A stretch of 64,000 nucleotides of DNA from Spirochaetaceae bacterium (GTDB lineage Bacteria; Spirochaetota; Spirochaetia; DSM-27196; SLST01): contig SKQU01000026.1 in NCBI GenBank assembly GCA_007118855.1, forward strand, positions 4,505 through 68,504. The letters are read 5' to 3'. This document shows, piece by piece, positions 132 to 11,148 of this stretch. How positions within the stretch are numbered: position 1 is the first letter of the stretch; each line of letters opens with the position of its first letter. A program made the translations under genes and the position numbers. Below the pieces are notes generated by a model. The model made no database searches. It was not told the origin of the DNA and saw only the letters and a program-made list of their open reading frames with translations.

Positions 132-659
132 TCAAGGTCTCCAGCCCTGTTCCGGTCCGGCGGAAGCGAGCCAGCTTCGGTAGCGCGACAGCTCTTCAAG
201 GAAGTTCGGCGTGTAGATCTCGCGTGGGTGTCCGCCTATCTCGGCGATCGACCAGAACCGCCCCTCGGTGATCTCGGTCGGGTCCACCTGCACCGGGCCG
301 TCCCAGAGGGCGCGAAACGTGGCGACCATTTCCGACTCGTACTCGTTGCGGTGCAGATACCGGTAGAGCGGGTCGATCCGTGCGCCGTCTATCCCCAGCT
401 CTTCCCGCATCTCGCGTCTGGCCGCCTGCTCATAGGTTTCGCCGGTGTCAACGTGTCCGCCCACCGAGGTGTCCCACCGGTTGGGCTGGACGTCCTTCTC
501 CGGTGAGCGCAGCTGCAGGAAGAGCTCGCCGAGCGAGTTGAACACGAGCACATGGGCCACGCGATGGATGAGCTGCGGGTTGCCGTGAACCTGCGCGCGA
601 AGCGCGCACCCGACCACCTCGTCGGCTTCGTTCACCACGTCGAAGACTTCTGCGCTCAT
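132..659 (-). CDS. Nudix hydrolase
   Basis: 175-aa ORF with a complete Nudix box GHVDTGETYEQAARREMREELGI (Gx5Ex7REUxEExGU). Its ATG at 659 overlaps the TGA of the upstream gene (ATGA). Confidence 0.8.
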   Translation of the reverse strand: MSAEVFDVVNEADEVVGCALRAQVHGNPQLIHRVAHVLVFNSLGELFLQLRSPEKDVQPNRWDTSVGGHVDTGETYEQAARREMREELGIDGARIDPLYRYLHRNEYESEMVATFRALWDGPVQVDPTEITEGRFWSIAEIGGHPREIYTPNFLEELSRYRSWLASAGPEQGWRP

Positions 660-1813
660 GGGCCCGTCTGGCGCCCTCCCATCGTGAGCGCGTGGATCGT
701 TCCCTGCAGTTCGCGTATCTGCTGCTTCTGCGCCGAGATCAGGCGGATGAACTCCTCCGCCGTGGCCTCGTCCGGATTCTCGTCGAGACGCGTGCCCGGG
801 TGCGGGTTGATCGACCCGTAGTCGTCTTCGGCCTCAATGGTTGCGAGCGCGAAACTGTCCTCGTACTCGTCGAGATCGAGCGGCATCTCCGGAAAGCGTT
901 CGGAGTGGATTATCTTCTGCGCGATCCGGTCGATCTCCTTCAGGATCAGGGAGTCCCGCCCCACGAGCGCGAGCGGTACCGTATCGCTCACCGCCTCCCG
1001 GACGATGTGGTCGTAGTAGAGGAACCCGAGGCAGCTCGGCTCGAGCTGCAGGCGCTCTTCTATCAGCGTCCGCAGGCTCTGGACGATCTCCATGTCCTCC
1101 GGATGATCCGCCATGCTGACGATGATGCTCGGGCGCAGTTGGCTGATCCGGTCGCGAGCGAGCTTCGCGGCACGCTTGCTGATCTTCTCGATGCCTTCGA
1201 CGATCTGCGCGATGCTCGGCGTGGCGTTCGGCTGTCGCTCCTTCACGATGTCCGACAGGAATCGGCTGACACCCTTCTGGTCCGAGAAGGTCTGCTGCAG
1301 GAGCCGGAAGACGGCGTTCTTGAGGAACCCGTAGGCATTCAGGATCGACGGGGTCTGCGGCGTCGTCACCATGAGTCCCGAGTTCGAGATCAGGAAGAAG
1401 TCGAGGGTGTTGAAGTGGCTGCCTGACCCGAGGTCGAGCAGGATGTAGTCGGCATCGAGCTTCTCGATATTCGTGATGATGCTTCGCTTCTGCGCATGAG
1501 AGAGGTTCGCCGCTGCGGCGACCAGTACGTCCCCGGGAATGAACTCGAGGTTGGGGTACGGTGAGCGTACGCGCACATCGTTGAAGCTCACCGAGCGGTC
1601 GGAGAGGAAGTTCCCGATCCCGCGATGGCGGTTCTTCACGCCGAGGTAGGTGTGCAGATTCGACGCGCCGAGGTCGAGATCGATCACCACGGTGCGCTGA
1701 CCGAAGGAAGCGAGCGATATCCCGAGGTTGGCGACGAGCACGCTCTTGCCCACGCCGCCCTTTCCCGATGCGACCGGCAGAATCTTTCGCCGAAGGTCTT
1801 CGTTGATGATCAT
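656..1813 (-). CDS. MinD/ParA-family P-loop ATPase (FlhG/YlxH-like) with an acidic, coiled-coil C-terminal tail
   Basis: 385 aa. Deviant Walker A near the N-terminus (VASGKGGVGKSV) followed by VVIDLDLGASNLH. C-terminal EEFIRLISAQKQQIRELQGTI segment. ATG at 1813 preceded by AGGGGAG. Confidence 0.8.
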   Translation of the reverse strand: MIINEDLRRKILPVASGKGGVGKSVLVANLGISLASFGQRTVVIDLDLGASNLHTYLGVKNRHRGIGNFLSDRSVSFNDVRVRSPYPNLEFIPGDVLVAAAANLSHAQKRSIITNIEKLDADYILLDLGSGSHFNTLDFFLISNSGLMVTTPQTPSILNAYGFLKNAVFRLLQQTFSDQKGVSRFLSDIVKERQPNATPSIAQIVEGIEKISKRAAKLARDRISQLRPSIIVSMADHPEDMEIVQSLRTLIEERLQLEPSCLGFLYYDHIVREAVSDTVPLALVGRDSLILKEIDRIAQKIIHSERFPEMPLDLDEYEDSFALATIEAEDDYGSINPHPGTRLDENPDEATAEEFIRLISAQKQQIRELQGTIHALTMGGRQTGP

Positions 1814-1901: not shown

Positions 1902-4481
1902 ATGCTAGAGATATTCGATCAGAACCCACAGAGTCGCGTGTTTCACGTGGACCGCGAGTGCTACGTGGTCTACCTCGGATCCCACTGGGAAGACTTCAAG
2001 CCGTTCCTGCGACTGGGAACCTCGCCCGAGCTCCCGCCCGAGCTCCCGCCCATCGTATCCACGATCGTCGTTCCGGACGCGCTCACCGGGAACCCGCTGG
2101 ACGAGCCTGCATGCCTCGCCGGCGATGCCACGCCGGATACGCACTATGTGGGTGATCTGGAGACGGTCGAGCACATGAAGAGCTTCGTCGGTCAGCACAC
2201 GATCCCCGTGGAGGCGATCGAAGCGATCGATCACGAGGACGACGACGGCAAGCACGTGCTCGTCTACTACTATAAGGACGGCAATCTGAAGATCAAGTTT
2301 CGCAGGAACGAGATCTTCGACCTCAGACGCCGTGAGAAGCTCGACGGACACTTCATCGCGCGTGCCCAGGATGCCAAAAACGAATATGGACGCGGGCCCT
2401 TCAAGTTCCCCGGCGATGCGTATCAGCTGCCCGGCTTCATCGTGCTGCGCGGCGCCCCCTACCTCGTAGCGCGCGGAGAGCTCGCGGCGCTGCATCTGAC
2501 CGACGACTACTTCTTTGCGCTCTCGGCGGCCGGTATCGACGCGGACAGGGTATCGACGGTGCAGGCCGAGGAGGCGGACGCCGCGCTCATCCGGTTCTTC
2601 AAGCGCAGTCGTACCCGGAACCGGCTGGTGCGCATCTCCTCGCCTCGCGGTGAGCGGGTTCGCCAGGCATCAGATCTCTTTCCGGCCAACTCGTTGCCTC
2701 CGTTGAAGACGATAGTTCTGGAAGGCCATGGCGGCGTCTTTGATTTCCACAAGTTCCGCGTGACGCGGGCGTCGGGACGGTTCGAGGCCTCGCTCGACGG
2801 GCTCGACGGGCCGATCGTGTTCGGGTCCGCCGCAAAGAAGACACGCGACGGTTCGTACGTGGTCGACGCGACCGCCGGGTCACTCCTGTTCGTCCGGTCA
2901 AAGACGAGCCATCCGCTCGTCGAGGGAACGCTCTACCAGTTCGGCGGGGTCCCCACGAACGACGACGCGAGTCGTTTTCTGCCCGAGAAGAACTACCCCT
3001 ACCGTGATCTGCTCTCCCAGGCCGAGAATACGCTGCTTGCGCAGCTCGAATACTTCTTCAACGAGCTGTTCGGCGGCCGCGACACCGCGAAGGTGATCCG
3101 AACGCTGAAGGGGCTCGATCCTGTGAAGGCGATCGGCAGGGACGACGGCTCGATCCACCCGATCGTTGAGGTCGTGCTTCACAACTACAAGGAGTATGCC
3201 CGGTACGTTCGCGACCATGAAGCGGAGGTCGGTCGCGGGGCGGAGGCCCTTCTGGGTCTGCTCGACCGTCACCAGGTTGGCAGGGCGGATGCCCCTGCCA
3301 ACCTGCCTCTTGTGGGTGAGATCTGCCGCGATGGCGAGCGGGAGTACCTCTTCTACCGCCTTGCCGCACGGATCACCGGCGACCGCTACGCTCATGCGGA
3401 ACAGGTTGCCGCGAAGGTTTACGCGCTCCCGGCCGTTGATTTCGCCGCCGAACGTCAGCGTCTGGTGGACCTCATCGCCGGGCTTGCGACGCCGGAGCAG
3501 ATGGACGAGGCTCGGTTGCGCCGGATCGCCGCGGCGGGAAAGAAGAAGGCTGCCGACCGACGCGCGGGCGAGTCCGAGAAGGAAGGCGCGGGCGGTTCAG
3601 AGCAGGATGCTCACGGCCGGGGAGACGGGACGACACCAGCGGGTGCACGGGAGCGGGGCGGGAAAGCCGCACCTCGCGGGAGAGCCGCCGGGGGCCGAGG
3701 CGCGGGCACCCGACGCAGGACCGGACGGCGCAGATGGGTGCTTCCGACCGCGGTGCTGCTCGTCCTGATCGCGGCGCTCCTGGCGCTGCTTCTCACCGGC
3801 ACGATCCCGAGTCCCTGGTTCGATCCCGTGGAGCCGGCGGCGGTGACCGACGACCCCACGGTTCCGATGCCCGACCCGGACGTCGTCGACCCGGACCTGA
3901 GGGACCCGGATGTCGACCCGGATGTGACCGATCCGGACCTGGTAGATCCGGACGCCGTCGTTCCGGACGCCGTCGATCCGGATGTGGAGCCTCGCCTGCC
4001 CGACGGATGGCCCGAGGAGTCTCTCCCGGCGATTCAGGCGCTCGAGCAGACGCCCGGTGTGACGATCACCGAAACCAGCGTGATCGGTCCGGGCGGGATC
4101 GAGATCACCCTGCGTGACATCATTGACCTGGTCAACCGAATCGCGACCGACAACGGGTATGCGCCCATGGGCGTGATTGACCCCGACCGGCCCGACCCTG
4201 ACTGGATCTATCCGGGAAATCTCTTTGTACTCCCGGACGGCACGCGCTACACTGTAGTGCAAGGTGATACGCTGTGGCACATCACCGTTCGGTATATGGT
4301 GGCTCGTTTGCGCAGCGACTACGACCGGTACACCCGTCTCGTCGCCGAGTACGAAGATGAAGCAACCGGTGAAGCGCGTCGGACCGAGATCGTTGAGTTA
4401 CTGGCGGCGCTCGGTGCTGCTTCGCACACCGAGAATTTCACCCGACTGGTCGAGGAGACCCTTGATCGCTGGGAAGAATAG
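1902..4481 (+). CDS. Uncharacterised bitopic membrane protein: ~590-aa cytoplasmic region, Arg/Gly-rich linker, one TM helix, D-P-D repeat spacer, C-terminal LysM-like segment
   Basis: 859-aa ORF with ATG plus SD. One hydrophobic helix (WVLPTAVLLVLIAALLALLLTG) preceded by an RRRTGRRR positive-inside cluster. (V/L)xDPD repeats follow. LysM-like strings IYPGNLFVLP and YTVVQGDTLWHITVRY sit near the C-terminus. Confidence 0.7.
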   Translation: MLEIFDQNPQSRVFHVDRECYVVYLGSHWEDFKPFLRLGTSPELPPELPPIVSTIVVPDALTGNPLDEPACLAGDATPDTHYVGDLETVEHMKSFVGQHTIPVEAIEAIDHEDDDGKHVLVYYYKDGNLKIKFRRNEIFDLRRREKLDGHFIARAQDAKNEYGRGPFKFPGDAYQLPGFIVLRGAPYLVARGELAALHLTDDYFFALSAAGIDADRVSTVQAEEADAALIRFFKRSRTRNRLVRISSPRGERVRQASDLFPANSLPPLKTIVLEGHGGVFDFHKFRVTRASGRFEASLDGLDGPIVFGSAAKKTRDGSYVVDATAGSLLFVRSKTSHPLVEGTLYQFGGVPTNDDASRFLPEKNYPYRDLLSQAENTLLAQLEYFFNELFGGRDTAKVIRTLKGLDPVKAIGRDDGSIHPIVEVVLHNYKEYARYVRDHEAEVGRGAEALLGLLDRHQVGRADAPANLPLVGEICRDGEREYLFYRLAARITGDRYAHAEQVAAKVYALPAVDFAAERQRLVDLIAGLATPEQMDEARLRRIAAAGKKKAADRRAGESEKEGAGGSEQDAHGRGDGTTPAGARERGGKAAPRGRAAGGRGAGTRRRTGRRRWVLPTAVLLVLIAALLALLLTGTIPSPWFDPVEPAAVTDDPTVPMPDPDVVDPDLRDPDVDPDVTDPDLVDPDAVVPDAVDPDVEPRLPDGWPEESLPAIQALEQTPGVTITETSVIGPGGIEITLRDIIDLVNRIATDNGYAPMGVIDPDRPDPDWIYPGNLFVLPDGTRYTVVQGDTLWHITVRYMVARLRSDYDRYTRLVAEYEDEATGEARRTEIVELLAALGAASHTENFTRLVEETLDRWEE
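3867..3992 (+). repeat. In-frame degenerate Asp-Pro-Asp repeat tract (MPDPDVVDPDLRDPDVDPDVTDPDLVDPDAVVPDAVDPDVEP)
   Basis: Reiterated gacccggac / gatccggat units in the DNA, immediately after the TM helix of the 859-aa protein. Confidence 0.8.
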
Positions 4482-4507: not shown

Positions 4508-4535
4508 TTGTTAACGCTGGAAAGTGTATTATACT
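4508..4535 (+). promoter_or_regulatory. Candidate promoter for the cfpA-like gene (TTGTTA-N16-TATACT)
   Basis: AT-rich patch in the 125-bp intergenic region. TTGTTA at 4508-4513 and TATACT at 4530-4535. Confidence 0.35.
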
Positions 4536-4606: not shown

Positions 4607-6583
4607 ATGTCCGATATCCCAAGGAGTCCAAACGTATTTCACCCTCGCAAGCCGTCAGCTGTTGGGTCACGCAACAGTCTGGCCCAGGAAGGGCGAAGCC
4701 AGAAGGACGAGTACAAGCAGGTCATCGCTGAAGAGGTGGAGAACATCCTCAAGGACATCCAGGTCAAGCTGCCGAACGAAGTGCTCGAGCAGCTCGACGT
4801 CATGGGTGGACTGAAGGAGAAGATCTACAACTACTACAACCAGAATTACCAGAACATGTTCAACCGGTACATCGTGACCGCTGAAGATGAGATGGTGAAG
4901 AAGGTTCGTAACTTCATCGACAAGGAAGAGTCGAAGGCCCTCGCGCGGTATTCTCCCAAGGAGATCGCCGAGATGCTCGACCAGATCGGTGGGGCGGACA
5001 AGTTCAACACCGGCGAGATCGAGAAGTCGATGGTCAACATGTACGGCCATCTCCAGGGGCACATCCAGCGAGGGATGAACGATCTCGAGAACGACACCAA
5101 CGCGCTGCTGCGGCAGAAGGCCGACGTCGGTGCCTTCATTCGCGGCGAGAACGCCTATTCGATCGTGAAATGCGCGTTCAAGGACAACCTCCACAAGCCG
5201 AAGAACGTCAGCGACGTGAAGCTCTCGGTGAACATTCTCGACTCCGAGCTCATAAGCCCGATCTTCCAGTACCAGGTGACCGTGGAGTTCCTGATCAAGG
5301 ACCAGATCGCCAAGACGATTACGACGCTGATCGAGCAGGAAGTCGAGCGCTACCAGGACGAGCTCGTTGACGAGGGCAAGGACGAGCTGACCGACAGCGA
5401 GATGATTTTCGAGAAGATCAAGCGGGTTCCGAACTACACCGACGACGATGCGGAGGACGAGAGCTCGAAGCGCTACACCTTCATGGCGAAGGAACTCGTC
5501 GAGAAGATCGAGGGGCTTCGCGCGGAGATCGATCCCAAGGAGTTCGATCCGCTCAACATCCGGGAGAACATCAAGAAGATCATCGACGCGGAGAACATTC
5601 GCAACCGCGGGTTCAACACGGCGATCAACTCGCTGACCTCAATTCTTGACACGTCGAAGATGGGCTATCAGTACATCGAGAACCTGAAGAACGCCCGCGA
5701 GCTCATCGTACGAGAGTACGAGGACACGGACGTCAACAACCTGCCGGACGAACGTTACCAGATGCGCCTGAAGTACTACGACCAGGAGCAGCTGCTGAAG
5801 GAGCGCGACGCGTACGACAAGCAGATGGAAGCGTTCAAGAACGAGATCACGCATGCGTGGGACGTCGTTCGCGCTCTCTACGACAGCAACAAGAGCGGCA
5901 TGCGGGTCAACGACTTCGACGACGTTGCGAAGCGGATGCGCGGTCGGGTTCGGCGTGCAAAGCAGGAGAGCGGAGAGCCGCTGTACGAGGAGATCGAGAA
6001 GACCTGGAACGAGATTCTGCGCATCAAGGCGGAGGAGACCGACGTCGAGCGGCTCAACAACACCTACCTGCACGAGAAGGCTCTGCTGAAGAAGATGCTC
6101 AACCGCTCCCAGGAGACGGTGGCGACGGTATACGGTCATCTCAATCCCAAGGAGCGGGTCGAGGTGGACAAGCGGATCCACTTCCTGCGGCGCGAGTTCG
6201 AGGAGTTCGACTACCTGATCAACCCCTACCATATTCAGCCGGGCCTCATCCTCGACGTGGACATCACCAGCATCAAGCGGAAGAAGTTCACGCTCAACGG
6301 GATGGCGAACGTGCTGAACGAGTTCCTGCACGGTGTCTCCAAGGGCTTCCAGGATGCGGCCTTCGCAACCTTCAAGCGCCGACGCAGCACGGTTCGCGAA
6401 GACCTGAACCAGAGTTTCATGTCCACTGTTGACCAGGAGATCACGGCTCAGGTCCCGGAGGCACAGCACTTCGAGTCGGCAACCGATGACGAGGAGTCGA
6501 GTGATGCCGGAGTGAAGGGCAAGGCTGATGTGACGCCGTCGCGGCGCCGCCGGAAGTCCTCTGACGATCTGCAAGAACTGTAG
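4607..6583 (+). CDS. cfpA: CfpA-like cytoplasmic filament protein (K/E/N-rich, coiled-coil-prone)
   Basis: 658 aa, similar in size to treponemal CfpA as I recall it. Long charged heptad-like stretches. Strongest SD in the window (AGGAAGGAG). Located two genes upstream of ppdK, the order I recall for T. pallidum. No alignment was run. Confidence 0.55.
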
Positions 6584-6586
6584 GGT

Positions 6587-7561
6587 ATGGAAAACACACT
6601 GAATCTTCTGTCGCGCAGGGCCGGTTTCAACACCGCCCTGCGCCACTTCAAGAGCGTCAACGCGTTTGCCGAAGACGTCGGCGAGGGGTACAACCTCGCC
6701 GATGTGCTCAACGAGGCGCTCGAGGACGGGTCGCTTGAGCGATACCAGGTCCGCGCTGTTCTGAACGCGCTCCTGGTCGAGAAGCTCGGTTACGTCACCC
6801 GCGCTCACAATCTCGAGGCCACGATAGACGACGCAGAGCCGATCATTGAAGCCCTTTCGAAGTGGGGGAAGATCCACGTCGTACTGTGCTACTACCATCC
6901 CCAGGCCGGTCTGTACGTCATCAACCCGGCGAACCCGGCGCATTGGGACGGTGTGTTGCCGCTTGTACGGGACGAGTACTTCCTGATGTTGGTGGGTCCG
7001 GCTACCGGGTCCCCGGATCACAGGACGCTTGAACGGGCGGCCGACGACGTTCTGAAGGTGCTCTACGGAAAGAGCGTCAAGGATGATTCCGCCTACCGTG
7101 GCAACCGCCGCGTTCTGAAACCTGCAGCCGATATACCGAGCTTTGACGAGACGCAACCGGCGCGCGCGGTTACATCCGCCGTGACGACGGAGGCTCCTGC
7201 TCAGCCCGCGGCCCAACGCGGCGGCAGCAGAAAACGGATAACCCCCAAGTATTCGGTCGTGGTGACGAACGAGCTCTTCCACAACGGGAACGTGGAGGCC
7301 TGGAAGAAGATCATTGCGAGCTTCCAGGCGAAGTACCCCGGACTCGACGTCCTCATCTGGTACGAGAATGAACGGATCAACGACATCAACTCACTGTTCA
7401 AGTGGGGGAAGGTCAAGCATGGTGTTCCCATCATGTTCAGCGTTGCGGGCGATGAGATCAAGGATGTCCGCAAGCTGCAGCGCTACCTCTACGAGGGGGC
7501 AAGCCCACGATTCGAGGCATTCCTCAAGGGCGGCTACGACCAGGTGCTGGACCTATTCTGA
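6587..7561 (+). CDS. Uncharacterised two-domain protein tightly linked to the cfpA-like gene
   Basis: 324-aa ORF. ATG lies 3 nt after the cfpA-like stop. Balanced composition. Two globular-looking halves joined by an Ala/Pro/Thr/Gln linker (TSAVTTEAPAQPAAQRGG). Confidence 0.7.
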   Translation: MENTLNLLSRRAGFNTALRHFKSVNAFAEDVGEGYNLADVLNEALEDGSLERYQVRAVLNALLVEKLGYVTRAHNLEATIDDAEPIIEALSKWGKIHVVLCYYHPQAGLYVINPANPAHWDGVLPLVRDEYFLMLVGPATGSPDHRTLERAADDVLKVLYGKSVKDDSAYRGNRRVLKPAADIPSFDETQPARAVTSAVTTEAPAQPAAQRGGSRKRITPKYSVVVTNELFHNGNVEAWKKIIASFQAKYPGLDVLIWYENERINDINSLFKWGKVKHGVPIMFSVAGDEIKDVRKLQRYLYEGASPRFEAFLKGGYDQVLDLF

Positions 7562-7620
7562 CGCAGACGATCCGGCGCTCCGGCGCCGCTCGTCGATCGC
7601 TCGCATGATGGAGAGAGGGA

Positions 7621-10278
7621 ATGCAGGAGTATTACTCGTTTAGCAGTACTGAGTATCTCAGTGATCCGGAGATTCTGGAAGCCGTCGGCAGTCGCGGTCG
7701 GCGGATTATGGAGCTTGCATCGCTCGGTGCGCCCATCTCCCCCGGGTTCATCATCACGAACGACACGCTGAACCAGATCGCCGCGGACGAGGCGGGCGTC
7801 TTTGAGATGCTCAAGGATCCGCTCTCGGACATGGAGGCGATCTTTCTCAAAGAGTTCAACAGCAGCTCGAATCCGCTGCTGATCAAGGTCGTGGAGAGTC
7901 CCATGCTCAACATGGTGAACACCTTTTCCACGATTCACAACATCGGGCTGTCAACGCAGACGGTCGATGGCTTCGCGGCGTTCGTGGGCGAACAGTTCGC
8001 CTACCATGAGTTCGGGAACGCGCTCGCGCATATCGCAGAGATGGAGCTTCTGACCGAGGGCGTGCCGGCGCGGCGCAAGACGCAGCTCGAGAAGGCGAGA
8101 AAGGACTTCCACGACGCGGCGGAGAAGGCGGACAGCCGCAAGGCGGTGCTTGCCGCGGTCGACAAGCACGGTGATGTCTTCCCGAGCAAGGTCTTCACCG
8201 ACTGTTACGAACAGTTCCGCTATGTCCTGAAGACATACCACAAGCTCTTCCAGATCAACCAGAGCTCCAGCGATTCTGCAATTCTCGTGCAGACGATGGT
8301 GTTCGGAAACTTCGGGAAGAACAGCCTGTTCGGATACTTCTACACGAGAGACATCATCTCCGGGGAGAGCGGGATCACCGGGGAGTTCTTCGAAGGGTCG
8401 TTCGACGATACCGAGGTCTCCGGGAAGCCGCTTTCGAAGATCGCGAAAGCGGTCAAGACCGAGCTCGACACGATAGGATCGGAGCTCGAGGCGCACTTCC
8501 GGGAGATCCGACGCGTCCGGTTCACGATCGAGCAGGGCAAGTTGTGGGTGATCGACCAGATGGAGGTCATCAACAAGAGCGCTCAGGCGGAGCTGAAGAC
8601 CCTGCTCGATCTGCACAAGAAGAAGGTCATTGACGACAAGTACATCATTGAGACGATCAAGCCGGGTCGTCTGAGCGAGCTGCTGCATCCGGCCCTCGAC
8701 GTTCGATCGGTGAAGGACGCAGGCAGCCAGTCCGGGGGCATCGCCGGCTCGGTCGGCGCGGCGATCGGGCGGGTCTATTTCGACACCGAGGAGCTGATCA
8801 AGGCGTACCGAATGGCCGTGCAGCAGGACGAAGACGCGAACTTCATCCTCGCGATGCCGGCTACCTTCGCCGAGGACGTCAAGGCCATAGAGGTCGCCAC
8901 CGGCGTGCTGTCCAGTGAAGGCGGGTACGCGAGCCATGCACCGGTTGTCGCGCGGAGCCTTGGGAAGGTGGCGCTCGTCAAGCCCGACATCAGCTGGGGC
9001 GACAGGCAGATGAAGATAGGCCGTAAGACGATCAAGCAGGGCGACTACATCACGGTCAACGTACCGTATTACGAGGAGCCTACCGTCTACTACGGACGCG
9101 GCGAGCTGACGAAGCCGAGTCCCGAGGGCAGCGGGCTGCTTGAGTTTCTCGATATCTGTGAAAGACACATCACGCCGGATTTTGACGTGCACTGTAACGG
9201 AGACCAGCCCAAGGACGCGGAGCTCGCGAAGAAGTTCCACGCGCACGGAATAGGTCTCTGCCGAACCGAGCACATGTTCTTCGCGGAGGACCGGATTCTC
9301 AAGTTCCGCACGATGATCATCGCCGGCAACAAGGAGGACCGGGAGAAGGCGCTCGTAGACCTCAAGAAGTTCCAGATCAAGGACTTCTACGAGCTCCTGA
9401 AGATCATGGACGGCATGCCGGTCACGATCCGCCTTCTCGATGCTCCGCTGCATGAGTTCCTTCCGCATACGCGCGAGAGCATGGACGAGTTCGTCAGACA
9501 CTTCCGCAAGCAGTATCCCAAGGTCAGCGAGGCCGAGGTCCGGAATCGGTGCGACCTGCTGAAGGAGTTCAACCCGATGCTCGGCCACCGCGGTATCCGT
9601 GTGGCGATCAGCTACCCGGAGATCTACAACATGCAGGTTGAGGCGATCTTCGAGGCCGCGTACAGGCTCAAGAGCGAGAAGATGAACCCCAGGCCGGAGA
9701 TCATGATTCCGCTCATCATGAGCGCTCACGAGATGAAGACGATCCGCAACGGCAAGCGCATAGAAGGGAAGGCGATCATCGGGATCAAGGAGATAGAGGA
9801 ACGGGTCAAGAAGAAGTTCAAGGCCCGGTCGCTCGACTACAAGGTCGGGACGATGATCGAGCTTCCGGCCGCCGCGCTGAACGCCGACAGTATCGCGCAG
9901 TACGCCGAGTTCTTCAGCTTCGGCACGAACGATCTGACCCAGACGACGAACGGCCTCTCGCGTGACGATTTCAACAGCTTCTTCAGCGACTACAACGAGT
10001 TCGACCTGCTCGAGGCGAATCCGTTCAAAGTGCTCGGGGAACAGGTGAAAGAGCTGATTCGCATTGCGGCCGAACGGGGCCGGCTGACCCGGCCGAGCAT
10101 CTCCATGGGCCTGTGCGGAGAGCACGGTGCGGAGCCTGAGAACATCGCCTACGTTCGAAGCGTCGGTCTGGACTACACCAGTTGCTCGGCATACGGCATC
10201 CCGATAGCCAAGCACGCGGTGGCGAAGATGAACGTCGCAGCCGAAGCCGCTGCCAGGAAGGCCGTCGCCGGCCGCTGA
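7621..10278 (+). CDS. ppdK: Pyruvate, phosphate dikinase
   Basis: 885 aa. Phosphohistidine-domain motif GGYASHAPVVARSLG. PEP-utilising motifs GLCRTEHMFF and FSFGTNDLTQ. SD GGAGAGAGGGA. Confidence 0.95.
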   Translation: MQEYYSFSSTEYLSDPEILEAVGSRGRRIMELASLGAPISPGFIITNDTLNQIAADEAGVFEMLKDPLSDMEAIFLKEFNSSSNPLLIKVVESPMLNMVNTFSTIHNIGLSTQTVDGFAAFVGEQFAYHEFGNALAHIAEMELLTEGVPARRKTQLEKARKDFHDAAEKADSRKAVLAAVDKHGDVFPSKVFTDCYEQFRYVLKTYHKLFQINQSSSDSAILVQTMVFGNFGKNSLFGYFYTRDIISGESGITGEFFEGSFDDTEVSGKPLSKIAKAVKTELDTIGSELEAHFREIRRVRFTIEQGKLWVIDQMEVINKSAQAELKTLLDLHKKKVIDDKYIIETIKPGRLSELLHPALDVRSVKDAGSQSGGIAGSVGAAIGRVYFDTEELIKAYRMAVQQDEDANFILAMPATFAEDVKAIEVATGVLSSEGGYASHAPVVARSLGKVALVKPDISWGDRQMKIGRKTIKQGDYITVNVPYYEEPTVYYGRGELTKPSPEGSGLLEFLDICERHITPDFDVHCNGDQPKDAELAKKFHAHGIGLCRTEHMFFAEDRILKFRTMIIAGNKEDREKALVDLKKFQIKDFYELLKIMDGMPVTIRLLDAPLHEFLPHTRESMDEFVRHFRKQYPKVSEAEVRNRCDLLKEFNPMLGHRGIRVAISYPEIYNMQVEAIFEAAYRLKSEKMNPRPEIMIPLIMSAHEMKTIRNGKRIEGKAIIGIKEIEERVKKKFKARSLDYKVGTMIELPAAALNADSIAQYAEFFSFGTNDLTQTTNGLSRDDFNSFFSDYNEFDLLEANPFKVLGEQVKELIRIAAERGRLTRPSISMGLCGEHGAEPENIAYVRSVGLDYTSCSAYGIPIAKHAVAKMNVAAEAAARKAVAGR

Positions 10279-10323: not shown

Positions 10324-11148
10324 CTATAGTCCGAGCTCAGGCAGACGCTCCGAGATTCCCAGGAGCGCCTGAAACGCGTCCAGCAGACAGAGTTTGACGG
10401 CGGTCTCGGTGACCCAGCTCGAGGTCTTGTAGTTGGTCACCACCGCCATGTACTCGTTGAGGCTCACCGCGAGGCTCTGCGGTGAGGCGAGCTCACCGTG
10501 TGGGGAGAGCTCGTGGCGGAAGAAGGCCCGCCTGATCGCCGCGTCGAGCGCGCGGCTTCCCTCGCGGTAACGACGGTAGGCGCCGTGCTCGTCGCGTGAG
10601 CTCGTCGGCGCAAAGGCGCGGTCGATCTGCATGCACTGGAGAAATGCCCGGGTGAACCCGGTGAAGATCTCAAGGGTTTCGCCGTCGACCGGGTTGGGCA
10701 CACGCAGGCGTTCGAGCTGGGCCAGCGCGTCGGTGATTCGGCGGACCGCCCCGCGGTAGCGGATCCGCGGGGTGCCCGCCCGGCGCTGGTGCGGATTCTC
10801 CAGTCCGTACTGGTAGTAGGTGAACACCCCGTCGAGAACACGATTTGCGATGTTCGAGAACAGCGCGGTGAAATCATCGTGCGCGCGGATCTCCCTGTCC
10901 AGGTGGGCCTGGACCTCTTCGTAGCGCAGCGCGGCGAGGTGCTCGACCGCTACGTCGTACGCTGCGTTTATCTTCACCATTGAGGTATGCGCCCATTCGA
11001 GGCGTTCGGGGTTGTAGTCGGGGTGATAGCGACGAACGAGCCTCCGGTACGAGGTGTTCAGGTCGCGCAGGGACGCCGCAGGGGATATCTTGAAGAGCGC
11101 GAGTGCCTTCTCCGCAGAGACGAAGGCCCGGCCGGAACGCGGCGCCAT
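10324..11148 (-). CDS. J-domain (DnaJ-like) protein with an uncharacterised ~200-aa C-terminal region
   Basis: 274 aa. N-terminal J-domain signature LNTSYRRLVRRYHPDYNP (HPD tripeptide) plus KINAAYDV. Confidence 0.8.
   Translation of the reverse strand: MAPRSGRAFVSAEKALALFKISPAASLRDLNTSYRRLVRRYHPDYNPERLEWAHTSMVKINAAYDVAVEHLAALRYEEVQAHLDREIRAHDDFTALFSNIANRVLDGVFTYYQYGLENPHQRRAGTPRIRYRGAVRRITDALAQLERLRVPNPVDGETLEIFTGFTRAFLQCMQIDRAFAPTSSRDEHGAYRRYREGSRALDAAIRRAFFRHELSPHGELASPQSLAVSLNEYMAVVTNYKTSSWVTETAVKLCLLDAFQALLGISERLPELGL

Follow-up and report, generated by a model that had tools for sequence, protein, structure and literature searches.

The 859-aa protein encoded in the window, the 64,000-nucleotide stretch of spirochaete DNA analysed here, is real, conserved and undescribed, and founds a family confined to spirochaetes. 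Tentatively, with confidence a little short of even, it is interpreted as a type-II protein that extends from the cytoplasm into the peptidoglycan layer and docks a partner through its cytoplasmic face, the partner in the window's lineage most likely being the cytoplasmic filament protein CfpA. The predicted domains and the neighbouring genes are listed in Table 1.

Table 1. Predicted regions of the 859-aa protein and adjacent genes (positions in the window)
Feature	Position	Strand	Basis or remark
MinD/ParA-like deviant Walker-A ATPase, 385 aa	656..1813	-	CbiA/ParA/MinD matches
859-aa bitopic protein, complete ORF	1902..4481	+	ATG start; stop codon 4479-4481
Residues ~10-200, predicted metallo-beta-lactamase (MBL)-like alpha-beta/beta-alpha fold without His ligands	1929..2501	+	Most conserved cytoplasmic module
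Residues 201-530, beta-rich and helical cytoplasmic subdomains	2502..3491	+	Structure model
Residues 531-611, long helix, then disordered Arg/Gly/Lys-rich juxtamembrane tail	3492..3734	+	Model, composition
Residues 612-635, single transmembrane helix WVLPTAVLLVLIAALLALLLTGTI	3735..3806	+	Hydropathy, charge bias
Residues 636-704, acidic Pro/Asp-rich periplasmic spacer	3807..4013	+	Composition
Residues 705-859, folded periplasmic C-terminal domain (155 residues)	4014..4478	+	pLDDT 87, pTM 0.75
Residues 733-800, putative LysM-derived core	4098..4301	+	Profile matches in two pieces, reversed order
Residues 791-858, three-helix bundle	4272..4475	+	Helices 791-818, 824-840 and 844-858; pLDDT >93
cfpA (cytoplasmic filament protein A)	4607..6583	+	NCBIfam NF040882, 1094.6 bits; 125 bp downstream
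TP_0747-family gene, in conserved cfpA-TP0747-PPDK core	6587..7561	+	PF27497 (precomputed)

The gene is present in a single copy in the window, and its ATG start is considered correct because the homologues begin with the same N-terminus, MLEIFDQNP. An identical protein (P0001) is encoded in the metagenome-assembled genome GCA_007132295.1, 41 close homologues were found, and at E<=1e-3 the family comprises 827 cluster representatives, for which there is no Pfam or NCBIfam model. A word-indexed search for the family returned 18 matches, none of them from named Treponema or Leptospira. Of the 155 full-length members, 150 share the architecture of Table 1, far beyond chance, and conservation is concentrated at the two ends of the protein, with mean identity peaking in residues 1-150 (69%) and 716-800 (71%) and falling to 30-35% in the linkers. 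A match to the NCBIfam model SCO2400 (E 0.0013, residues 545-630) was rejected as compositional because the matched stretch runs from the helix through the Arg/Gly tail into the transmembrane segment.

An inner-membrane bitopic topology with the N-terminus inside and the C-terminus outside is well supported by sequence features, in agreement with the initial annotation, which had placed the large domain in the cytoplasm and the C-terminus in the periplasm on either side of one helix. The only hydrophobic segment comprises residues 612-635 (Kyte-Doolittle 19-residue maximum 2.96), no signal peptide was found in the protein, and a single helix is likewise predicted for all but five of the 155 full-length family members. 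The helix directly follows the string GTRRRTGRRR, and 12 Lys or Arg residues occur in the 30 positions before it, compared with none in the 30 after; the N-terminal side is the richer in these residues in 124 of the 150 single-helix members. The structure model contains a helix at residues 531-560, beyond which pLDDT falls below 50, and residues 561-611, ending in RRRTGRRR, are dominated by glycine (15), arginine (12) and alanine (9). This basic juxtamembrane region varies among the homologues.

The periplasmic spacer had been described as a rigid-looking segment of about 40 residues. It is in fact about 65-70 residues long (636-~704), and proline (20), aspartate (19) and valine (13) account for most of the 85 residues at 636-720. 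At the DNA level, positions 3872..3982 contain 7.6 imperfect copies of a 15-nt tandem unit (71% matches). The model, which takes in the spacer from residue 677, shows that part as disordered (pLDDT ~50), and in the family as a whole the spacer is acidic and varies in length from 14 to 438 residues (median 88.5 aa, median net charge -15). A rigid conserved spacer was thus ruled out, only the acidic low-complexity character being kept across the family.

The C-terminal domain is present in all full-length family members. Profile comparisons support a LysM-derived core in which the second half comes before the first and to which a helical bundle is fused, and the domain is likely to be a peptidoglycan-binding module. 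The strings IYPGNLFVLP and YTVVQGDTLWHITVRY, singled out in the initial annotation as LysM-like and unusual in their succession, were both found in that order, and matches to PDB profiles likewise place the second half of the motif before the first. The core comprises a strand (IEIT), a helix (DIIDLVNRIATDNG), a loop, the second-half motif DPDWIYPGNLFVLP, the residues DGTR and the first-half motif YTVVQGDTLWHITVRY, with only 4 residues between the two motifs. In canonical LysM domains the order is beta-alpha-alpha-beta, the first half being followed by the second within ~44 residues; here DPDWIYPGNLFVLP precedes YTVVQGDTLW. Residues 731-779 were ruled out as a full LysM on their own, only the second half being matched. 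The three-helix bundle continues from the LysM-like first helix and carries a conserved S-x-S/T-E-N-F motif.

In direct scoring with the Pfam LysM model (PF01476), the native protein stays below threshold, reaching 14 bits (residues 783-798 against profile positions 1-16) compared with the gathering cut-off of 20.9 bits. Sub-threshold matches occur in 21 of 27 family members (best E 1.2e-4), and a PF01476 match is listed for one distant member in precomputed annotation. The family profile matches SafA (E 4e-7), 4uz2 (E 4e-6), LytE, TsaP and Kbp, with E-values ranging from 4e-7 to 2e-3. Both glycan-groove motifs of LysM, GDT(L/I)W and DPxWI(Y/F)PG, are kept, and conservation in 37 diverse members is 90% or more at D74 and W77 of GDTxW and at P51, I54 and P56 of DPxWIxPG (numbering of alignment A4). 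An in-silico construct with the halves re-ordered aligns end to end with residues 2-46 of the SafA LysM (E 7e-10) and scores 23.0 bits with Pfam; a native-order control reached the same total score, and since the totals are similar in both orders, re-ordering does not separate a circular permutation from 1.5 tandem units. A Foldseek search of the C-terminal model against the PDB yielded no LysM match (best E 0.41), and its superposition on a phage LysM protein (65 columns, 3.0 A, E 0.34) was not significant.

The N-terminal ~590 residues had been reported to lack any recognisable motif; structural comparison revealed more. The model of this region (pLDDT 83, pTM 0.82) predicts an MBL-like fold for the first ~200 residues. 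The top 50 Foldseek matches in the PDB are all MBL-fold proteins (best E 5.7e-4, probability ~1.0; E 6e-4 to 1e-2 over 150-190 aligned columns), including RNase Z/ELAC, Apyc1 and an arylsulfatase, with modest TM-scores of 0.33-0.37 per target. Since Foldseek gives no query ranges, the module boundaries (~10-200) were derived from the secondary-structure pattern. No Lactamase_B or other MBL match was obtained by sequence in Pfam, NCBIfam or a PDB profile search. Among 168 sequences no His column reaches 85% conservation, the highest being H150 (81%) and H15 (56%), and the HxHxDH and other His metal ligands are not found. Because these ligands are absent, the module is most likely a non-catalytic binding module. 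Its conserved positions are R12, F14, D17, E19, C20, G26, F35, R37, G39, D59, G63, P65 and E68. Further confident elements of the cytoplasmic part are strands at 217-348, helices at 353-453, a hairpin at 470-487 and helices at 493-527.

The gene immediately downstream, described earlier as a filament gene, is cfpA, and the adjacency is strict in the window's lineage, where cfpA directly follows the family gene in all 39 informative species loci. A MinD-like ATPase is divergently encoded upstream in 37 of 45 informative loci of this lineage; in the window, 88 bp separate the two start codons. On the far side of cfpA, a TP_0747-family match was found in 68 of 80 cfpA metagenome loci. No terminator-like site was detected between the 859-aa protein gene and cfpA, and a promoter-like site in the 125-bp spacer weighs against assuming co-transcription.

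Phylogenetic linkage to cfpA, the absence of which the initial annotation would have taken as a refutation, is specific to this lineage. Among the 42 cfpA loci that are informative, namely those with enough upstream DNA, a family member lies upstream in 8, with 4 partial ones in addition, and is missing in 34. These 34 are Treponema-type loci, and all three upstream regions scanned for this type contain VWA, DHH or pallilysin genes. Adjacency is therefore not conserved wherever the cfpA-TP0747-PPDK cluster occurs. The T. pallidum gene upstream of cfpA, TP0749, was ruled out as an ortholog, its product being a miniprotein: published models extend to residue 65, and C61 is part of the peptide studied (PMC9200625). 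TDE0843 and TDE0844 are located on the other side of cfpA. From the family's side, the gene-cfpA arrangement is kept in the distant members P0143 and P0125 (~20-25% identical), and six of the eight sampled distant members do not adjoin cfpA. Loci L059-L062 have an OmpL37 context without adjacent cfpA, and loci of this context carry a different, overlapping ~195-aa downstream partner gene. In L145 no cfpA is adjacent, in L146 the family gene is convergent with those for ZapA and ZapB, again without adjacent cfpA, and in L147 the MinD-like ATPase is kept beside the family member and cfpA is missing. Linkage to cfpA is thus weakened: it runs one way and is lineage-specific. A dedicated CfpA tether is plausible on the strength of synteny, and would not be a general feature.

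CfpA ribbons were described decades ago, and the way in which they are held beneath the membrane, aligned with the periplasmic flagella, is not known to have been worked out. The title of Izard et al. 2004 reports bridging and anchoring components yet to be identified. CfpA filaments lie just beneath the cytoplasmic membrane, parallel to the periplasmic flagella (PMC13398306). No link of cfpA to a LysM protein was found in the literature searched.

In the proposed mechanism, the 611-residue N-terminal part stays in the cytoplasm, one helix crosses the membrane, and the acidic spacer lets the folded 155-residue domain reach into the periplasm, where it would probably bind the glycan strands of peptidoglycan. 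The conserved cytoplasmic face (R12, E19, C20, R37, E68 and neighbouring residues) would dock a cytoplasmic partner, in the window's lineage most likely the CfpA ribbon encoded directly downstream, possibly with a contribution from the divergently encoded MinD-like ATPase. As a result, the position of a sub-membrane structure relative to the sacculus would be fixed. A more specific version, in which the CfpA ribbon of non-treponemal spirochaetes is anchored to the membrane by this protein, a catalytically dead MBL-fold domain clamping the ribbon, a naturally circularly permuted LysM (alpha2-beta2-turn-beta1-alpha1) pinning it across the membrane to peptidoglycan and the MinD-like ATPase setting the position, is rated unlikely.

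The genomic evidence can also be read in terms of a general envelope-spanning scaffold that would have the MinD/ParA-like ATPase or the division machinery as its main cytoplasmic partner, its adjacency to cfpA reflecting shared regulation or history only. The sampled distant members away from cfpA and the many cfpA loci without the family gene fit such a scaffold, as do the frequent divergent ATPase, its retention without cfpA in L147, the convergence with ZapA and ZapB in L146, and the alternative downstream partner in OmpL37-context loci. Against it, the adjacency to cfpA is perfect in the lineage and tighter than that to the ATPase (39/39 compared with 37/45), and it persists in P0125 and P0143 in spite of their low identity. 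This explanation is considered somewhat unlikely.

The bitopic layout, with an ectodomain of glycan-binding type and a large conserved cytoplasmic domain, would also suit a transmembrane sensor comparable to LysM receptor kinases or PASTA kinases; peptidoglycan or muropeptides would be sensed by the LysM-like domain and the signal passed on to the cytoplasmic domain. However, searches with Pfam and NCBIfam revealed no output domain such as a kinase, cyclase or HTH domain, and the linkers on both sides of the helix are variable and, where modelled, of low confidence, which makes conformational signalling unlikely; a sensory role is rated very unlikely. Least probable of all, and regarded as extremely so, is a membrane-anchored active MBL-fold hydrolase (a nuclease, phosphodiesterase or similar) localised by the wall-binding domain. 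The uniformly MBL-fold enzyme matches of the model and the conserved acidic/Cys cluster (D17, E19, C20, D59, E68) would fit such an enzyme, but the sequence IVVPDALTG stands where HxHxDHxxG would be expected from the secondary-structure register, the only His columns of note are the two incompletely conserved ones given above, and sequence searches did not recover the superfamily. An active MBL enzyme was rejected on the missing metal ligands.

If the preferred reading of a cytoplasm-to-peptidoglycan linker is right, the protein could link the wall to a structure inside the cell, for example the CfpA filament ribbon, the CfpA link applying to one lineage only. With its clear architecture and two conserved 'business ends', the family is a concrete candidate for holding CfpA ribbons. 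The value of this is limited because the Treponema-type cfpA loci, from the group in which the ribbons were studied, are without the gene at that position. The protein may also be a structural curiosity on two counts, an MBL fold put to use, minus its metal site, in a structural membrane protein, and a LysM module whose second half precedes its first.

Compared with the MBL superfamily, represented by RNase Z/ELAC1 and Apyc1, the N-terminal module displays a fold-level likeness without a match at the sequence level; HxHxDH and the other His ligands are missing, and the module is placed, unlike in that superfamily, inside a membrane-anchored structural protein. The solved LysM proteins SafA (7r1l), the Thermus thermophilus NlpC/P60 protein (4uz2), TsaP (3jc8) and Kbp/YgaU (7pvc) share the GDT(L/I)W and NPxxI(Y/F)PGQ motifs. 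In contrast to these, the halves are reversed in the 859-aa protein, the segment preceding the second half is unlike a LysM first half, and the helix that follows the first half continues into the helical bundle.

In its bitopic N-in/C-out layout with a periplasmic domain of wall-binding type, the protein is rated, by analogy, as a variant of the known cytoskeleton-to-wall linkers RodZ, Csd5 and FtsN, a functional class and not a homology family; its link to a filament rests on synteny. RodZ is an MreB-associated N-in/C-out protein with a single membrane pass; its cytoplasmic domain binds a filament lying under the membrane, and on the periplasmic side a disordered linker is followed by a folded C-terminal domain. 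The 859-aa protein would share this general principle of joining a cytoplasmic filament to the envelope. In RodZ the cytoplasmic domain is a small one of the XRE-type helix-turn-helix kind and LysM is absent, whereas the 859-aa protein has a ~600-residue cytoplasmic part with a predicted MBL-like fold, no HTH detected and no sequence relationship to RodZ. FtsN resembles it in orientation and in the long low-complexity periplasmic linker ending in a glycan-binding domain; this domain is SPOR instead of LysM, and the cytoplasmic tail is very short. In Helicobacter pylori, Csd5 is reportedly bitopic (Blair et al. 2018), with a periplasmic C-terminus that binds peptidoglycan and another end that joins the filament-forming bactofilin CcmA. 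Csd5 has an SH3b domain, a short cytoplasmic N-terminus and no MBL-like or LysM-like module, and serves a different filament system, yet it would be the closest functional analogue of the mechanism proposed here.

The gene directly upstream of cfpA, which encodes cytoplasmic filament protein A (CfpA), codes for a protein with a single hydrophobic segment, residues 612-635 (maximum 2.96), and no hydrophobic segment at the N-terminus, as found by a hydropathy scan. The window is matched by the metagenome-assembled genome GCA_007132295.1 (contig SLOX01000153.1), and the start codon is correct because homologues line up flush with the N-terminal MLEIFDQNP. The 30 residues preceding the helix comprise 12 K/R and one D/E, and the 30 residues following it no K/R and eight D/E. 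Since long N-terminal domains cannot be exported without a signal peptide, the positive-inside rule and the absence of an N-terminal hydrophobic segment place the 611-residue N-terminal part in the cytoplasm. The bitopic N-in/C-out topology proposed in the initial annotation is well supported, and all of the elements listed there were found in the protein, with corrections only to the spacer length and the N-terminal region.

Coordinates of features in the window, in related loci and in the model of residues 677-859
Feature	Coordinates	Strand	Remarks
MinD/ParA-like deviant Walker-A ATPase	656..1813	-	385 aa; divergent upstream, 88 bp between start codons
Window protein ORF	1902..4481	+	859 aa, ATG start
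15-nt repeat array	3872..3982		7.6 imperfect copies of CGACCCGGACGTCGT, coding for part of the Pro/Asp spacer
Promoter-like site	4508..4535		TTGTTA-16-TATACT, in the 125-bp gap before cfpA
cfpA	4607..6583	+	downstream of the window-protein gene; NF040882, 1094.6 bits
TP_0747-family gene	6587..7561	+	downstream, with cfpA
Pyruvate phosphate dikinase (PPDK) gene			after the TP_0747-family gene
DnaJ-like gene	10324..11148	-	274 aa, weak J-domain; after PPDK, opposite strand
~195-aa gene	L059:10504-11097; L061:8006-8590; L062:5862-6440		overlaps family gene by 8-20 nt
Helix	residues 705-715		short strands next
Helix	residues 737-750		23-residue loop next
Strands	residues 774-776 and 782-784		separated by a turn
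Helix	residues 791-818
Helices	residues 824-840 and 844-858

The window protein represents a new family that is not covered by the curated models of Pfam and NCBIfam, where a sub-threshold LysM fragment and an NCBIfam match to SCO2400 were the sole hits. The SCO2400 match is compositional and was rejected. A word-indexed search yielded 41 homologues, all from metagenome-assembled genomes of Spirochaetota and all annotated as 'hypothetical'; when 1.84 billion cluster representatives were searched exhaustively with a profile, 827 proteins passed E<=1e-3 and 214 passed E<=1e-30. All 155 members retrieved with a length of 700 aa or more carry the C-terminal domain; a single hydrophobic segment is present in 150 of them, of which 124 show a K/R excess on its N-terminal side. 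The 22 family sequences without the C-terminal domain are truncated fragments. Identity to the window protein averages 69% over residues 1-150 and 71% over residues 716-800, its two peaks, and drops to its minimum in the two linkers (35% and 30%); therefore, selection acts mainly on the two ends.

The model of residues 677-859 (pLDDT 87, pTM 0.75) is confident from about residue 705. A profile, A4, built from 37 diverse C-terminal domains and searched against solved structures, matched SafA (4.1e-7), T. thermophilus 4uz2 (3.8e-6), LytE (9.8e-6), the LysM protein of 6ve2 (2.6e-5), TsaP (4.1e-4) and Kbp/YgaU (2.1e-3). Every match to LysM structures was split into two pieces, A4 positions 38-61 (..DPDWIYPGNxxxLP) aligning to the second half of LysM and positions 62-80 (xYTVxxGDTLWxIA) to the first. 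With the halves re-ordered in silico, the profile matched the SafA LysM end to end (1-44 versus 2-46, one gap, E 7.2e-10), as well as Ecp6, Kbp and CVNH-LysM, and the re-ordered window sequence scored 23.0 bits against the Pfam LysM cut-off of 20.9. At the sequence level, a LysM ancestry of the C-terminal core, with compatible lengths, is clearly indicated. The core may be one circularly permuted LysM, or else a complete but divergent unit (733-778) plus a half unit, the helix of which now belongs to the helical bundle; the data fit either, since the native-order control reached the same summed score as the re-ordered form, but in two stretches. The native-order profile matches the junction of consecutive LysM repeats in 4uz2. 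Ahead of the second-half motif, strand IEIT and helix DIIDLVNRIATDNG form a segment with a LysM-like topology and no detectable LysM sequence signal.

The LysM-like strings in unusual order reported initially thus correspond to LysM-derived sequence with reversed halves, although the native sequence scores only 14 bits (residues 783-798 versus profile positions 1-16) and falls outside LysM by both formal threshold and motif order. Foldseek found no LysM match for the C-terminal model in the PDB; among viral models, it can be superposed on a LysM protein from a phage (65 columns, 3.0 A, probability 0.91, E 0.34), which supports the fold weakly. The most conserved positions in A4 are loop residues lining the LysM glycan groove, and peptidoglycan binding by the periplasmic end would be the natural reading.

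The N-terminal region, initially described as devoid of recognisable motifs, yielded a confident AlphaFold2 model (residues 1-570, 27-sequence alignment, pLDDT 83.4, pTM 0.82) whose top 50 Foldseek matches in the PDB are exclusively metallo-beta-lactamase (MBL)-fold proteins, including arylsulfatase (8gyg), RNase Z/ELAC1, Apyc1, PqqB and IMP-1 (best E 5.7e-4, probabilities near 1.0, 150-190 aligned columns, TM-score per target 0.33-0.37). The strand and helix order predicted for residues 13-200 agrees with the MBL pattern, and Pfam, NCBIfam and PDB profile searches gave no sequence-level MBL signal. The model supports, with moderate strength, an MBL fold assigned at fold level only. In the secondary-structure register, which we inferred, query ranges not being given by Foldseek, the HxHxDHxxG position would read I55-V-V-P-D59-A-L-T-G63. 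No His column is conserved among 168 family sequences (highest H150, 81%, and H15, 56%), and therefore the canonical di-metal site is absent; R12, F14, D17, E19, C20, G26, F35, R37, G39, D59, G63, P65 and E68 each show conservation of 85% or more. We favour reading the module as a putative non-catalytic scaffold with a conserved surface; a non-canonical metal site is conceivable. Beta-rich and helical subdomains are followed by a long helix (531-560) and an Arg/Gly-rich disordered tail reaching the membrane.

The spacer, residues 636-~704, is rich in Pro/Asp/Val and was initially described as rigid-looking and ~40 residues long; it measures ~65-70 residues, and across the family it ranges from 14 to 438 (median 88.5) and is not conserved in sequence. 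Its composition is rich in A/D/G/E/S/T/P and net negative in 80% of members, and in the window protein it is disordered where the model covers it, from residue 677 (pLDDT about 50). The spacer is a flexible acidic tether and not a conserved rod. The repeat array in its coding DNA could lengthen or shorten.

The position directly upstream of cfpA holds in the window and in all 39 species loci with enough downstream DNA (median spacing about 143 bp), among 54 family loci found by scanning one genome per GTDB species, all in Spirochaetota (Spirochaetaceae, Alkalispirochaeta, Salinispira). The MinD-like ATPase, a possible positioning partner, occupies the divergent position in 37 of the 45 loci whose upstream DNA is long enough. 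Between the window-protein gene and cfpA there is no terminator-like site; the promoter-like site is followed by a strong ribosome-binding site, AGGAAGGAG, and such sites show no excess over chance in the region. CfpA is conserved far more strongly than its upstream neighbour (98% versus 80% identity in locus L004, 93% versus 63% in L005). The cfpA-TP0747-PPDK block (4607..10278) has a lower GC content (0.57-0.60 versus about 0.66) and a strongly positive AT skew, and the DnaJ-like gene is kept after PPDK in many related loci.

Among 80 cfpA-anchored loci on metagenome contigs, TP0747 is kept in 68 and PPDK in 53, and a directly upstream family gene is confined to loci whose CfpA shares 69% identity or more with the window copy (eight complete genes and four C-terminal fragments at contig ends). 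Even permissive HMM thresholds revealed none in 34 loci that have 2.5 kb or more of DNA upstream; there, the upstream genes are on the opposite strand. In T. pallidum, TP0749 lies upstream of cfpA, followed by TP0750/TP0751; the VWA, DHH/DHHA1 and pallilysin beta-barrel domain proteins encoded upstream of cfpA in the three such loci that were scanned (L077, L108, L124) correspond to this TP0750/TP0751-type arrangement. TP0749 is a miniprotein (PMC9200625). Of the eight distant family members sampled, just two (P0143, P0125) adjoin cfpA. Three (L059, L061, L062) occur in an OmpL37-family gene context, and each runs into a conserved ~195-aa gene (57-66% identity among the three, no Pfam match), a possible alternative partner where a lineage has no adjacent cfpA. 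One is located near LDH and ankyrin genes; at L146:7409-8077, another (P0131) is convergent with neighbouring ZapA and ZapB genes, a hint of a connection to cell division; and one (L147) keeps the divergent MinD-like ATPase without cfpA. The proposed linkage to cfpA is thus complete in the window lineage, but fails in the 34 cfpA loci and in six of the eight distant members.

A conserved cytoplasmic module and a LysM-derived periplasmic module joined by flexible linkers are well supported, and this anatomy is that of a trans-membrane tether, in which the periplasmic end would bind peptidoglycan and the cytoplasmic end would dock a partner. Because adjacency is perfect in the window lineage, the CfpA ribbon is the leading candidate there, and CfpA filaments sit directly under the cytoplasmic membrane (PMC13398306); the MinD-like ATPase is the second candidate. 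Our literature search found no paper tying cfpA to a LysM protein. A universal or obligatory role of the window protein as CfpA anchor is excluded, since the family also occurs where cfpA is not a neighbour and is missing from Treponema-type cfpA loci; a more general scaffold is a serious rival to a CfpA-dedicated tether. The missing metal ligands make an enzymatic role unlikely, and a sensor role is unlikely too, given the lack of an output domain and linkers that are variable and, where modelled, of low confidence.

The window protein belongs to the MBL superfamily at fold level only. Its functionally closest analogues are RodZ, Csd5 and FtsN, which are likewise bitopic with a periplasmic wall-directed domain and whose cytoplasmic ends engage filaments or the divisome, although none is homologous to it.
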